A stretch of DNA of 64,000 bases from a virus. Below are positions 33,117-39,372 of the stretch, piece after piece. Below the pieces are notes generated by a model that had not been told where the DNA came from, did no database searches, and saw only the letters and a list, made by a program, of their open reading frames with translations. Each line of letters opens with the position of its first letter. Within the stretch, counting starts at the first letter, position 1. A program made the position numbers and the translations under genes. Where the stretch lies: positions 29,757 to 93,756 of IMG/VR virus record IMGVR_UViG_3300045988_122031, one strand, 5' to 3'.

Positions 33117-33887
33117 TTAATCATCCAACTCCATTCCTGCCTCGATCCACATGCCAGATATAAATTTAGGCATTGGAGCAAGTTTAAATACATTCTTCTC
33201 ATGCATTTCATCAATGATCTGTCTCACTGCTTTATCCTTGCATTCACCTGTTCTGATATATTCATCCAACACTTCGTATGTAAATCCAAGATTATCTTCA
33301 TCTGTCTTACCACATAACCCATCAGTAGGAATTTTTTCGATTAACTCTGTTGGAAGTCCCAGAACTTTACCAATTGCTTTAACTTCTGTCACAGTCAGAT
33401 CGGCAAGTGGAGCAAATGATCCAAATCCATCTCCGCCATAAGTCGCATATCCAACCCAATCTTCGGATAAATTGCAATTACAACTTACCCTTCCATTCAT
33501 ACTCTGTGCAAAAGCATATAATGTAGCCATACGGATACGAGCAGGTAAATTTGTGGCACTTTGTTTACTCCATTTACCACCTAATTCATCTCTGATTTCA
33601 TGTTTAATATCTCTGCAAGCATTAAAAATATTAACTGTGTAATGTTCAATTCCTAGATGATCACATAGCATCTGAGCATACTCAATATCTGACTGCACAC
33701 CCTGTGGCATCATAACTCCAATTACTCGATTCTTGCCAAGTGCTTCTACGCATAAGGCTGCAACCACTGACGAATCTTTACCGCCTGAAATTCCTACAAC
33801 GGCATTACATCCTTTACCATTAATTTCAAACCAATCTCTGATCCACTGCACTAATCTGTCTTTGGTTTCTGCTGCATTAAAACTCAT
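33117..33887 (-). CDS. nadE: NH3-dependent NAD+ synthetase
   Basis: PP-loop GISGGKDSSVVAAL, NLPARIRM and GDG motifs. Confidence 0.85.
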   Translation of the reverse strand: MSFNAAETKDRLVQWIRDWFEINGKGCNAVVGISGGKDSSVVAALCVEALGKNRVIGVMMPQGVQSDIEYAQMLCDHLGIEHYTVNIFNACRDIKHEIRDELGGKWSKQSATNLPARIRMATLYAFAQSMNGRVSCNCNLSEDWVGYATYGGDGFGSFAPLADLTVTEVKAIGKVLGLPTELIEKIPTDGLCGKTDEDNLGFTYEVLDEYIRTGECKDKAVRQIIDEMHEKNVFKLAPMPKFISGMWIEAGMELDD

Positions 33888-33904
33888 GTTTTATATCTCC
33901 TCTC

Positions 33905-35374
33905 TTAAAATTCTCCTTCGTTTAACACTCTTCTAATCTCCTGTAATGACTGTTCTTTGACCAATTTACCGTCTCTAAATACCGTCTCAAGCAAATTATT
34001 CATTGGAAGATTTTCTGAAGTATATTCATCTTTAAATGTCAGTTTGCCGTCTGATCCTTTATAGACATGACATAAACCTCTCTGAGATTTCTTAAATCCG
34101 CCATCTTTTGGATTCTTAAAAATCGGATATGGTCTGCCATCAATCTCACAATATGTTGCTTTGATGCAACTACTAAACGTATCTCTTGTAAATGGTTTCA
34201 AAACTCCATCTTCTTCGATACACTGAAATGAGAATGATCCAACGCCAAGTGCAACATTGCTTGCTGCGAATCCATTTTTCTCTAAGATGTCATAAATCTG
34301 CTCACATCTCTGCACTGTAATTGAATCTCCATAAATTGCTTTTACATGAGGATCTAATACTTTGTATCCTTTACTATTCGTAGTTCCGCCAAATTCTTCC
34401 CATAACTTGAATACTGTTCTGGTTACTACATCTACACAATCTCCTGAATCCCCTCTTACAAGAAAACATCCATTGTGATTCATGATCTCATTCTTGAGTT
34501 TTGGAAGAATATTCTCTACAACATTCCAATAATCATAAGAATCTAACACTGCGGAGAAGCTTGTATTTGGGTAAATCTCTGTTAGCAATCTTTTAATCAG
34601 TGTCTCTTCATCTCCGTCAATCGCATAATTACTACACATAACCGAATGCTCAGTAGACGGACTACCAAAAGCAACTGGCTCTTTCGTACAATCACAGTTA
34701 TAATTTCTCTCTAAATACGGAATTGTTGGAACTGTTGCTGTATTCAAGAATGATAAACACCATCCTGCCCCTGCTTTAACCGCAGACTGTAAACATTCTT
34801 CGCCACGAAAATCGAAAGCCCCTAATGCCTTAGATTTTGGGATATCATCATCGCAAGTCATTTCATAAAACTTATTAACGATCTGTCTATATGTATGCCC
34901 GACAGTCGCAGCTATCATCGGATGCCACATTTCTGCTGAAATTAAACTTTCTAATGCCTGTGGTAACCATGCAAAATCTTTGTGAGTATTCTCAATACTA
35001 AACATCGGCACATGCATTGGTACTAAAGTTCCTTCAGGAAGAGCCTTAATCTCAATTGGAAGATAGCCAAGATCATATAAATCTTCGATTTTCTGTAATC
35101 CATATGTACCTTCTCCAAGAGCTGCATCCATTACTGTCTTATAAGTACCAATTGCTTTGTTTCTATATTCAAAGAAAAAATACTCATTAAAATAATCGAC
35201 CAAATACTCTTTAATGAATCCTTGTAATCCAAACATGGCTACTTCATTCCATCGTTTTACTCTGCTCATACGTGGAGTAAAATAAGAAACAGATTTTGTA
35301 ATACCTTTTGGTAACATTTCAGCATGGACTGCTTTGTAAAAATCAATTAATAACATTGGATTTGTCTGTTTCAT
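33905..35374 (-). CDS. nadV: Nicotinamide phosphoribosyltransferase family protein (NAMPT/NadV-like; possibly Namat-type)
   Basis: Strong NAMPT-family segments: LLIDFYKAVH, YFTPR...MFGLQ, LPIEIKALPEGTLVP, VLDSYDYWN, LVRGDSGD and KGYKVLDPHVKAIYGDSI. Confidence 0.85.
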   Translation of the reverse strand: MKQTNPMLLIDFYKAVHAEMLPKGITKSVSYFTPRMSRVKRWNEVAMFGLQGFIKEYLVDYFNEYFFFEYRNKAIGTYKTVMDAALGEGTYGLQKIEDLYDLGYLPIEIKALPEGTLVPMHVPMFSIENTHKDFAWLPQALESLISAEMWHPMIAATVGHTYRQIVNKFYEMTCDDDIPKSKALGAFDFRGEECLQSAVKAGAGWCLSFLNTATVPTIPYLERNYNCDCTKEPVAFGSPSTEHSVMCSNYAIDGDEETLIKRLLTEIYPNTSFSAVLDSYDYWNVVENILPKLKNEIMNHNGCFLVRGDSGDCVDVVTRTVFKLWEEFGGTTNSKGYKVLDPHVKAIYGDSITVQRCEQIYDILEKNGFAASNVALGVGSFSFQCIEEDGVLKPFTRDTFSSCIKATYCEIDGRPYPIFKNPKDGGFKKSQRGLCHVYKGSDGKLTFKDEYTSENLPMNNLLETVFRDGKLVKEQSLQEIRRVLNEGEF

Positions 35375-37282: not shown

Positions 37283-37302
37283 AATTTAATCTCCTTTTTA
37301 TA

Positions 37303-39372
37303 TTAAAATTTAATTTTAAGAACTCTTTCTGTTGCACCCTTGACTTTAACGATCACATCATCTCGTTTTGTAGAACTGAAGCCAATTCCTGATAACTGGT
37401 TTGGATCATCTGCGACATGCATTTTGCTTCCTAAAGCCTCAAATACTCTCTTGTGCTGTACTAATTCCTGCTTCAAAAACTCATTGAAGAATCCATTTGG
37501 AGTATCTTCATTTACACATCCGTTTAACATAAACAGATAATGTTTATGTCCAATACCTGTCTGCTCGTCCCAATAGTTAGGTGAATAACACATTACTGTT
37601 ACTGGCACAAACTGATTTGTATTGATTCCACAGATTTCTCTTGAAGATGTTGTTGATGGAAGTTTCTCTTTGATTGTGAATACTCCATCTTTTAATGTAA
37701 CTGTAGCCACTGGAACATCTTCGTTCTGACGTAAAGGCTTATCATATTCAAATTCATAAATCTGTCCATCAAATTCAATCTCTGCTGTAAATCCAGAAAC
37801 TCCATTTCTATGAGCAAAATTTCTTACGAAAAATTCATATTCTCCGTCAACCATTTTGGATTTATCTGCCCATGTAATATTTTCTACGGCAGGCTCTCCT
37901 CTATGTGGATGAGTTACATCAACATCAAGGCTTCCACCAGTTGCATAATCATGCATTGAAGCATAATAGATATGATGACGTGGAGTTCTGCAATGTGCAT
38001 CAAAATCATCCTGATTCCAATCTGTATTTGCATTCCACTGAATTGAGAATCTTAAAACTCCATCAACCGCACCGCCTGCGTTCTTAACTCTTTCTTTCAT
38101 TTCACTGTCTGTCATATTTCCTGAATATGCCCAGCTGAAAGGATTACTCCACTTCATCATGTTCTTGGCATCTTTGTTTACAGGTGCGATCAGTGAAACC
38201 ATGTTCTTCTTATGTCGATTTTCAAACAAGACTTCTAATTCTTTTGCGGTTGGAAGAACATCTGATACAAATTTCTCTGCACTGATCTCTTCTACTTTAG
38301 AGAATTTCTTAGGATTTACAGCGACTTCCTTACTCATCTCATCAAAAATATCTAAGCCGCCCTGGATACGTGGTGCTGCATCACGATTACAAAACAGAAT
38401 ATTGTTTACCGTAATATCGTCAAGTCTTGCAAATCTACGCTGCAATGAATCCATATATCCTAAATCGGTTACAGTTTTCTTTGCATCCTCAAGCATTTTC
38501 TTCGTAAAAATTGCCTTTGGTCGTTTGTAATTCGCAGGAGCTACAACATTTTCATAAGCTTTTACTGCATTATCTAAATCCATACCTTCGCTGATATTCA
38601 CAAGTAATGTACCGATACTATGGTTTCTAATACGACCAATTACATCTCCGATCGTCATGGCTTTTGTCCATGTGTATGTATCTTTTTCTTCATCTGACAA
38701 ACCGTTGTATTCTCGCTGATATTTTCTAAAATCTTTTAATACTCTTTCCCATTCCTGTCCTCTATAAAGAGTATTTGAAGCAATCAGTTCTAATACTGTA
38801 TCAACAGCTTCTTCTGTAATTTCATCAAGTGATCTTTTAAACACATTCTTTCGATCTCTCACTTTTGCTTTAATTGTAGGAATATCAGATTTCCTTTCCA
38901 ATAACCTCTCTGGAATCGGTGTATACATATGAGTCCATTTGATAATCTGCTTATCTTCTGTATACTCATTTGTGGTTTTTGTACCAACTGTATTTGTAAA
39001 ATGTCTCCAAATATCTTTGATCGGCTTTGATTCGACATATGTTCTTAAGGCATCAACTACTGGCTGAAATACTACATCATCTGTGTCGATCTCCCAGATT
39101 GTATGAATCTTGCCGTCAACAATTGCCACAGCTCCACCGATTGTTTTAATAAAGTTTCGGCAATGACCACAGTCATATTCTCGTCGTTTGCGATACATTT
39201 TGTTTGTTCCTTCAGGAAAACTACTCAGATATACTTCCCACAGCACATCTTTATCAATATCAGTTTCATACAATGTAGAATTGTTTTTCTCTACATAGTC
39301 GAGCATTTTATTTAAACGCTCTGACAATTTGTTTAAAAAATTGCTCCAGTTTTCATTCATTGGCGTACACAT
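37303..39372 (-). CDS. Large hypothetical protein (689 aa) adjacent to the NAD cluster
   Basis: Long ORF. No motif recognised with confidence; the C-terminal region is rich in H/D/W. Confidence 0.55.
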   Translation of the reverse strand: MCTPMNENWSNFLNKLSERLNKMLDYVEKNNSTLYETDIDKDVLWEVYLSSFPEGTNKMYRKRREYDCGHCRNFIKTIGGAVAIVDGKIHTIWEIDTDDVVFQPVVDALRTYVESKPIKDIWRHFTNTVGTKTTNEYTEDKQIIKWTHMYTPIPERLLERKSDIPTIKAKVRDRKNVFKRSLDEITEEAVDTVLELIASNTLYRGQEWERVLKDFRKYQREYNGLSDEEKDTYTWTKAMTIGDVIGRIRNHSIGTLLVNISEGMDLDNAVKAYENVVAPANYKRPKAIFTKKMLEDAKKTVTDLGYMDSLQRRFARLDDITVNNILFCNRDAAPRIQGGLDIFDEMSKEVAVNPKKFSKVEEISAEKFVSDVLPTAKELEVLFENRHKKNMVSLIAPVNKDAKNMMKWSNPFSWAYSGNMTDSEMKERVKNAGGAVDGVLRFSIQWNANTDWNQDDFDAHCRTPRHHIYYASMHDYATGGSLDVDVTHPHRGEPAVENITWADKSKMVDGEYEFFVRNFAHRNGVSGFTAEIEFDGQIYEFEYDKPLRQNEDVPVATVTLKDGVFTIKEKLPSTTSSREICGINTNQFVPVTVMCYSPNYWDEQTGIGHKHYLFMLNGCVNEDTPNGFFNEFLKQELVQHKRVFEALGSKMHVADDPNQLSGIGFSSTKRDDVIVKVKGATERVLKIKF

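Follow-up and report, generated by a model that had tools for sequence, protein, structure and literature searches.

A four-gene phage cassette that looks like an undescribed offshoot of the NAD+ reconstitution pathway NARP1

The 64,000-nucleotide stretch of phage DNA analysed here (IMG/VR record IMGVR_UViG_3300045988_122031, positions 29,757 to 93,756; referred to as the window) carries a cassette of four enzyme genes of NAD+ metabolism, adjoined by two further genes in the same orientation. All six open reading frames (ORFs) lie on the minus strand and are preceded by strong GGAG ribosome-binding sites. The cassette begins with a pncA-like gene (36222..36818, 198 aa; PF00857), followed by a prs-like gene (35371..36207, 278 aa; phrog_619) that overlaps by 4 nt with the gene of a NAMPT-like transferase (33905..35374, 489 aa; PF04095, PF18127, phrog_448), and it ends with nadE (33117..33887, 256 aa; PF02540, TIGR00552). 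Upstream, a gene for a 129-aa protein (phrog_2018) adjoins the cassette, and a 689-aa protein (phrog_1735, corresponding to DUF8224, with a TerD-like domain) is encoded at 37303..39372. ORF coordinates and profile searches thus bore out the four enzyme assignments and the two co-oriented neighbours of the original prediction that was made from the sequence. Intergenic spacing inside the four enzyme genes ranges from –4 to 17 nt, after which 74 nt separate the cassette from the 129-aa gene. Because a scan of the 32.5–41 kb region for promoters and terminators yielded counts no higher than the shuffled expectation, the operon structure of the cassette is read from this spacing only.

The outer two genes of the cassette were readily assigned. 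The PncA-like protein matched PF00857 at 9e-19, and its best match in the Protein Data Bank (PDB) was the P. horikoshii pyrazinamidase/nicotinamidase (1im5/1ilw). It contains the catalytic residues Asp11, Lys110 and Cys149 and the nicotinamidase metal site Asp49-x-His51...His68; D11, C149, D49, H51 and H68 align to D10, C133, D52, H54 and H71 of the P. horikoshii enzyme, and Lys110 was assigned from a K-x-x-F-G-S motif. NadE matched PF02540 at 1.4e-51 and scored 172.9 bits with TIGR00552 (cut-off 63.65). Its PP-loop SGGKDS starts at residue 34, a glutaminase domain is absent, and its best PDB match was the NH3-dependent NAD synthetase 2e18 (9e-35), with 3fiu in second place, which we take to be the Francisella enzyme that prefers nicotinic acid mononucleotide (NaMN) and represents the nicotinamide mononucleotide (NMN)-synthetase subtype of NadE. 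Among 50,697 phage records, NadE was found in 51 and a PncA-like gene in 9.

The inner two genes had been matched in the original prediction both to NARP1, the phage NAD+ reconstitution pathway formed by Adps and Namat (described from Bacillus phage SPbetaL1, E. coli phage Bas63 and, as NrsAB, Vibrio phage ICP1), and to NadV salvage. For the prs-like protein, profile searches pointed to the Adps type. Specifically, it matched phrog_619 at 3e-66, had no Pfam match and remained under every NCBIfam Prs cut-off; since TIGR01251 gave 74 bits against a cut-off of 113, the protein resembles PRPS without being a canonical Prs. With SPbetaL1 Adps it shares 34% identity, and residues F18, R87, H121, D161, K185 and D212/D213 of ICP1 Adps are found as F14, R80, H114, D156, K178 and D209/D210 in the window. 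Moreover, the Adps-type hairpin K-x-R-[DN]-x-x-T-G-x-I reads KNRDWKTGKI in the window, as opposed to KRRPRAN in E. coli Prs. Phe92 of ICP1 Adps is conserved neither in the window nor in SPbetaL1 Adps, and no Adps chain matching the window protein was found in our PDB copy.

The transferase matched PF04095, PF18127 and phrog_448 (the latter at 1.9e-158), and scored 436.6 bits with NF006629 (cut-off 405). Its best PDB match was SPbetaL1 Namat (9w5x/9w5w; 1.3e-115, 390 bits), to which it is 42% identical, whereas bacterial and human NAMPTs scored around 175 bits. The catalytic core of Namat, consisting of the catalytic His, Arg306, Asp308, the Phe189/Tyr15′ stacking pair and Arg192, is present as H243, R307, D309, F187, Y13 and R190, and D11, G349-D350, G379-S380-F381 and T396-R397-D398 are likewise retained. 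The stacking residue of the Namat SCL loop (Arg40 in SPbetaL1) is present as R38 in TPRMSRVKRW.

Within this conserved framework, the pyridine pocket is remodelled. In crystal structures of Namat with NAD+, the amide of nicotinamide is hydrogen-bonded by Asp215, and a D215A mutation leads to an approximately 8-fold loss of activity (PMC12774641). In the window, the Asp215 column is occupied by Ala213 (NTAT versus GTDT in Namat), and three further pocket positions are changed, with Ala242 replaced by Ser240, Gly213 by Asn211 and His187 by Gly185. The transferase is thus closest to Namat rather than to NadV, but has lost the amide-binding Asp.

To place these substitutions, we gathered about 245 flanked loci from viral, phage and bacterial collections and added, as an unbiased set, the top 150 cluster representatives that an exhaustive HMMER search returned. 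Two classes with nearly no overlap were apparent, of which one combines Asp215 with Ala242 (referred to as canonical) and the other Ala, Ser or Val215 with Ser242 (referred to as variant). Column 215 holds Ala, Ser or Val throughout the approximately 85 variant clusters, with Ser in about a quarter of them, and Asp or Glu throughout the 128 canonical ones; the variant accounts for about one in three of the Namat-like clusters closest to the query. At the SCL stacking position, Arg is the most frequent residue in both classes. When the 85 variant and 128 canonical clusters were compared column by column, the top four discriminators among some 480 columns were precisely 215 (D to A/S), 187 (H to G/S/C), 242 (A to S) and 213 (G to N/K), with columns 240, 184 and 239 ranking next, and all of these top columns flank the carboxamide subsite. 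The four leading columns correspond to H191, G217, D219 and A244 of human NAMPT, in which Asp219 is reported to define nicotinamide substrate specificity and the other three residues line the same tunnel. Among the tabulated human mutants, D219S switches substrate affinity and D219A inactivates the enzyme (PMC4919578).

The contacts to the ribose, the phosphates and the AMP phosphate (D361), as well as the adenine-stacking Phe392 and R40′, T398′, R399′ and D400′, are common to both classes, Tyr396 being the sole ligand contact of the Namat-NAD+ complex outside the pocket discriminators that differs between them. Since the ribose and phosphate contacts are conserved while the carboxamide columns have changed, the change appears to be aimed at the pyridine substituent and not at the ribosyl donor. 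These pocket changes predict that the window transferase would use nicotinamide poorly. A solved structure of a variant-class protein was not found in the PDB copy, in which the third match of the transferase, 9ke8, is of the canonical Asp type.

The adenine-binding side of the enzyme was examined via the SCH selectivity-clamp motif of Namat, G-S-X-phi-X-phi-X-phi-T-R-D, in which positions 3 and 7 are aromatic. In the window this motif reads GSFSFQ, followed by a 9-aa insertion (CIEEDGVLK, residues 385–393) and PFTRD, so that Phe is retained at position 3, Pro occupies the column of the position-7 Tyr, and a conserved Phe/Tyr stands just before TRD. The basal variant lineages retain the canonical clamp GSYTYQYxTRD, and a neighbour-joining (NJ) tree marks the loop insertion of the window as a later derivation. 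As these basal lineages kept the clamp, the pyridine pocket would have changed while the element with specificity towards ADP-ribose pyrophosphate (ADPR-PP) was kept.

Many phage genes of the NAMPT/Namat family are 550–1100 aa long owing to intein- or homing-endonuclease-like insertions (represented by P0279, P0313, P0342, P0289, P0303, P0316–P0318 and P0337), several of which hit the enzyme's most conserved sites, lying exactly within the adenine-clamp motif or at the catalytic His. A search for Rosetta-stone fusions of the transferase with PncA or Adps was fruitless, as the N-terminal extensions of variants P0268 and P0284 turned out to be HNH/AP2 homing-endonuclease domains or nothing recognisable.

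Loss of the amide-binding Asp coincides with a particular gene neighbourhood. The content of the flanks was determined by hidden Markov model (HMM) scans of six-frame ORFs, and linkage was counted over loci flanked on either side by 4 kb or more, after de-replication at 80% identity. A pncA, a nadE and a prs gene were all nearby in 33 of the 38 variant clusters (these 33 representing 131 loci), whereas neither pncA nor nadE was near canonical Namat in any of 30 clusters (38 loci, flanks of at least 4 kb; Fisher p = 2e-14). The clustering of the cassette is far from chance, its four genes being found together again in some 130 related loci, with transferase identities down to 40–48%. Their usual order is pncA-adps-transferase-nadE, which certain lineages have rearranged or dispersed, and the linkage outlasts such changes in order and spans unrelated phage lineages, including the code-15 phage Phass-1, as well as bacteria. 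Five variant loci have one gene missing (two bacterial, two phage and one from a metagenome-assembled genome, MAG). The bacterial ones are operons with the regulator gene nrtR but without an adjacent nadE, and bacteria carry nadE elsewhere in the genome. One phage lacks nadE, the other lacks pncA but has an NMNAT-type gene, and prs is missing from the MAG locus as well as from a shorter relative.

With its nicotinamide-binding Asp replaced and its transferase tied to PncA and NadE, the cassette departs from NadV salvage and, for the same reasons, from a two-gene NARP1. What stands of the latter match is descent from the Adps/Namat lineage, as indicated by the 390-bit match to Namat, the hairpin and signature residues of Adps, and the position of the variant in the tree. 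Specifically, in an NJ tree of 214 clusters all variant tips formed one clade nested within the canonical Namat radiation. The co-variation of pocket and linkage is therefore one ancient event followed by persistent retention, and not a set of independent replicates.

A genome scan found the variant also in many gut Clostridia MAGs and in some isolates. In a Ruminococcus MAG, the operon runs pncA-adps-transferase-NadE-NrtR, with a 656-aa NadE composed of CN_hydrolase and NAD_synthase, and about twenty further loci, including that of the isolate Pseudoruminococcus massiliensis, give the same pattern of HMM matches. In another bacterial locus, NrtR comes immediately after the transferase. NrtR is a repressor released by ADP-ribose, whose regulons include the prs-nadV operons of Shewanella and Acinetobacter, in which the dedicated prs paralogue puzzled the authors, and the pncA-pncB-nadD-nadE operon of Clostridium acetobutylicum (PMC2330246). 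Compared to that latter operon, the Adps-like/Namat-like pair fills the pncB-nadD slot between pncA and nadE, a slot whose net product is nicotinic acid adenine dinucleotide (NaAD).

Gene identities, active-site differences, strict linkage, clade structure and the NrtR context of the bacterial copies were all directly observed, and from them we take the four minus-strand genes between 36818 and 33117 (pncA-like, adps-like, namat-like and nadE) to constitute one functional unit, which we propose to be a 'deamidated' derivative of NARP1, a proposal we hold to be evenly balanced between right and wrong. In this derivative, PncA would convert the nicotinamide freed by NADases into nicotinate and NH3, the Adps-like enzyme would form ADPR-PP and AMP from ADP-ribose and ATP, and the Namat-derived transferase would combine nicotinate and ADPR-PP directly to NaAD and pyrophosphate, after which NadE would use ATP and NH3 to turn NaAD into NAD+. 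The net reaction would then be the formation of NAD+ from nicotinamide, ADP-ribose and 2 ATP, with no need for PncB and NadD. As to its parts, it is quite likely that the transferase is specific for nicotinate, and we lean towards ADPR-PP as its main donor.

Along such a nicotinate route, PncA would supply the substrate of the transferase rather than divert it. The enzyme had at first appeared odd, since deamidating nicotinamide seemed to withdraw substrate from NAD+ rebuilding; most likely, it instead provides nicotinate as the real substrate, with NadE re-amidating the product. Likewise, NadE would always accompany the variant because the NaAD product needs amidation. A role of the cassette in restoring NAD+, as originally put forward, is in any case a sensible reading of its genes. 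More tentatively, and with slightly less than even confidence, we suggest that the variant transferase has an unrecognised activity, the one-step conversion of nicotinate and ADPR-PP to NaAD, and that it would be part of a self-contained four-enzyme route that is widespread in gut phages and Clostridia and whose bacterial copies are induced by ADP-ribose via NrtR.

Depleting NAD+ is one of the major ways in which bacteria act against phages, and by analogy with NARP1 the cassette may be used during infection to offset NAD+-depleting defences of Lachnospiraceae-type hosts. A different purpose, orthogonal to the chemistry, would be that of a general NAD+-supply or recycling module derived from Clostridial housekeeping, which supports NAD+-consuming replication (by an NAD+-dependent ligase, for example). 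The presence of the same cassette beside NrtR in bacterial chromosomes speaks for this purpose, as do its location within a replication/nucleotide-metabolism region of the window and the fact that the counter-defence role is assigned by analogy. However, canonical NARP1 is experimentally directed against NADases and its bacterial copies also neutralise NADase defences (PMC12774641), the substrates of the cassette are exactly the products of NADases, and large phages presumably often keep such modules under defence pressure, so that we regard a mere supply function as somewhat unlikely. Judging from the chromosomal NrtR-linked version, the module also serves, or arose in, ordinary NAD+ recycling.

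With regard to the chemistry, the chief rival to the ADPR-PP route is a serious one. As an analogue of the Preiss-Handler pathway, the prs-like gene could encode a dedicated synthetase of phosphoribosyl pyrophosphate (PRPP), in which case the transferase would make NaMN from nicotinate and PRPP, either host NadD or a phage NMNAT-type enzyme would convert NaMN to NaAD, and NadE would finish the synthesis, with PncA feeding nicotinate into it. This would agree with two loci, L208 (9406–12226) and L209, in which pncA, the variant namat and nadE occur without a prs within 10 kb; both are Oscillospiraceae MAG loci, and their three-gene form may use PRPP or an Adps encoded elsewhere. It would also agree with the CTP_transf_like (NMN/NaMN adenylyltransferase-type) gene beside nadE in 5 of 190 variant loci (L045 at 12246–12833, there together with the loss of pncA, and L121, L124, L125 and L126) and in none of 53 canonical loci. 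Moreover, Namat still makes NMN from PRPP and nicotinamide in vitro (PMC12774641), prs-nadV operons have historically been interpreted in terms of PRPP (PMC2330246), the adenine clamp is disrupted in the subclade of the window, and NF006629, which the transferase matches above cut-off, is called 'nicotinate phosphoribosyltransferase', although this is a name only.

Several findings nevertheless argue for ADPR-PP. The Prs-like protein has the signature residues and hairpin of Adps and falls below every Prs equivalog cut-off, the pair is nested in an experimentally characterised Adps/Namat lineage, the basal variants have kept the whole adenine clamp, an element that PRPP chemistry does not need, an adenylyltransferase is lacking in 97% of variant loci, and the bacterial operon is adjoined by NrtR, a sensor of ADP-ribose. 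For the window ORFs of at least 150 aa, the listed Pfam families (25 out of 35) included no adenylyltransferase (CTP_transf_like). We therefore consider a PRPP-only chemistry unlikely, while noting that both routes may coexist. Finally, a canonical NARP1 pair that makes NAD+ from nicotinamide and ADPR-PP, with PncA and NadE as independent helpers boosting the host Preiss-Handler pathway in parallel, would suit the homology of the pair to NARP1 and the possibility in principle of pairing PncA and NadE with host PncB and NadD, but is very improbable, given that the amide-binding Asp is missing and the entire carboxamide wall remodelled in all of the approximately 85 variant clusters, that Namat D215A and human NAMPT D219A are impaired and inactive, respectively (PMC12774641, PMC4919578), that PncA would compete for the substrate of the transferase, and that the absence of pncA and nadE from all 30 canonical Asp215 clusters is hard to explain if these genes were independent of the pocket change.

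A number of points weigh against the proposed nicotinate/ADPR-PP route itself. Besides the two three-gene loci without prs, the NMNAT-type gene in five variant loci and the PRPP-dependent activity of Namat, all of which fit a PRPP/NaMN route as well, adenine binding is uncertain in the window subclade because of the 9-aa interruption of its clamp and the Pro at the Tyr396 column, and Ser190, which contacts the NMN phosphate, is replaced by Asp188. Furthermore, only D219S has been tabulated as a specificity switch in human NAMPT and D219A as a loss of activity (PMC4919578), and the window has Ala. The variant has a single evolutionary origin, which leaves the co-variation of pocket and linkage without independent replication, and an NJ tree of the Prs-like proteins, which we do not count as evidence, did not recover those associated with the variant as a matching clade. 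The route also costs one ATP more than NARP1 for no demonstrated advantage, and the chromosomal version beside NrtR suggests a housekeeping origin and not a dedicated anti-defence role. Lastly, every functional step of the pathway is derived from sequence and context.

Compared to known systems, the cassette shares with NARP1 the adjacent PRPS-fold and NAMPT-fold genes, the catalytic residues of Adps and the catalytic core of Namat, as well as the Arg of the SCL loop and the first aromatics of the clamp. It differs in the four pocket substitutions, the clamp interruption (in this subclade), the nearly constant presence of PncA and NadE, and a predicted transferase product that is NaAD instead of NAD+. 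The C. acetobutylicum Preiss-Handler operon (PMC2330246) resembles it in having PncA first and NadE last, in the NrtR beside the bacterial copies, and in the predicted intermediates nicotinate and NaAD; however, the cassette has the Adps-like/Namat-like pair instead of pncB and nadD, and the ribosyl-AMP part would come from ADP-ribose and not from PRPP and ATP. With NARP2/NadV salvage (NAMPT plus NMN adenylyltransferase, as in Vibrio phage KVP40) and with prs-nadV operons, it has in common a NAMPT-fold enzyme, a linked prs paralogue and an association with NrtR, but the Asp219 equivalent is missing, an adenylyltransferase is rarely nearby, and the transferase is far nearer to Namat than to NAMPT. 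The human NAMPT D219S mutant (tabulated in PMC4919578) likewise has a small residue in place of the amide-binding Asp, although the variant represents a natural, ancient remodelling of multiple residues, and the Ala of the window inactivates the human enzyme when introduced as a single mutation.

Full-text literature searches for nicotinate-ADPR transfer, or for PncA or NadE in connection with NAD+ reconstitution, returned nothing on the variant, and it is undescribed in the published work on NARP1, the Namat and Adps structures, NARP3, RyDEP and aRES and in a 2022 survey of viral NAD+-ADPr metabolism. The cassette thus seems to be a hitherto undescribed branch of a phage counter, itself known, to NAD+-destroying defences. 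If the proposed route is true, it would add to NARP1, NARP2 and NARP3, which are being worked out singly, a fourth phage route, with direct NaAD synthesis from nicotinate and ADPR-PP, and would account for a large, so far unannotated subfamily of 'nicotinamide/nicotinate phosphoribosyltransferases' carried by gut phages and Clostridia. It would also show how defined pocket substitutions re-route a salvage enzyme, and would tie the ADP-ribose-sensing NrtR to an operon that actually consumes ADP-ribose. Practically, anti-defence annotation tools that name the pair 'NARP1' probably assign the wrong substrate, and all four genes may be required in phages that are engineered to escape the NADase defences of gut Firmicutes.

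The 689-aa protein had been suggested to extend the NAD+ system, which the distribution of its family contradicts. DUF8224 proteins occur in 538 phage records, including Ackermannviridae and Bacillus, Caulobacter and Microcystis phages. The gene for the 689-aa protein is always paired with the 129-aa gene, but the pair is missing from many cassette-bearing phage loci, lies on either side of the cassette in others, and is absent from all 80 bacterial loci. We therefore rejected the 689-aa protein as part of the system; the two genes are a separate, widespread phage module that is not tied to the cassette.

The window has a G+C content of about 34% and nearly all of its genes share one strand. 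The surroundings of the cassette constitute a replication/nucleotide-metabolism module with PolIII-alpha, RecD/Dda- and DnaB-like helicases, a primase, a RecJ-like exonuclease and sigma factors. A megablast of the region against the 50,697 phage records gave no match, homologues being found by protein-level searches only. Near-identical cassettes are present on IMG/VR contigs of 140–170 kb, and one on a contig of 35 kb that belongs to the assembly of an isolate, Anaerostipes sp. Marseille-Q3525, which points to a large phage of gut Lachnospiraceae as the source. Outside the 30–42 kb region, the window ORFs of at least 150 aa include a MazF/PemK-type toxin, a phage integrase-family protein, two Bro-N proteins, a nucleoside 2-deoxyribosyltransferase-family protein, an RlaP-type nucleotidyltransferase, DHH phosphoesterases and two sigma factors.

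A few variations on the layout were seen around the cassette and in its relatives. Starting 2 nt past nadE, a 110-aa protein (32782–33114, minus strand; phrog_20678, listed as PF27390 'PM0253') is kept only among the close relatives of the window. Just downstream of the cassette lie an SPFH/Band7-flotillin protein (31256–32716) and a PspA/IM30-like protein (30507–31241), both on the minus strand. In the relative from the Anaerostipes assembly (L246), the same slot (9035–13470) holds a P-type cation ATPase, a vWA-TerF-like protein, a TerD protein and PspA, so that the slot looks like a phage-borne membrane-stress module of the Ter/PspA type. Between the transferase gene and nadE, two close relatives have an extra ORF for a DUF2726 protein (L009, 11470–12258; L028, 11470–12450), which we take to be a mobile endonuclease, and an ORF of 136–139 aa without a family match is found at this position in L246 (7470–7880) and in Phass-1 (L082, OQ749652; 7784–8203). 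In Phass-1, a gut phage with a recoded stop codon (code 15), the four-gene cassette moreover adjoins a large tRNA array that includes the suppressor tRNA-Sup-CTA (region 12258–19519).

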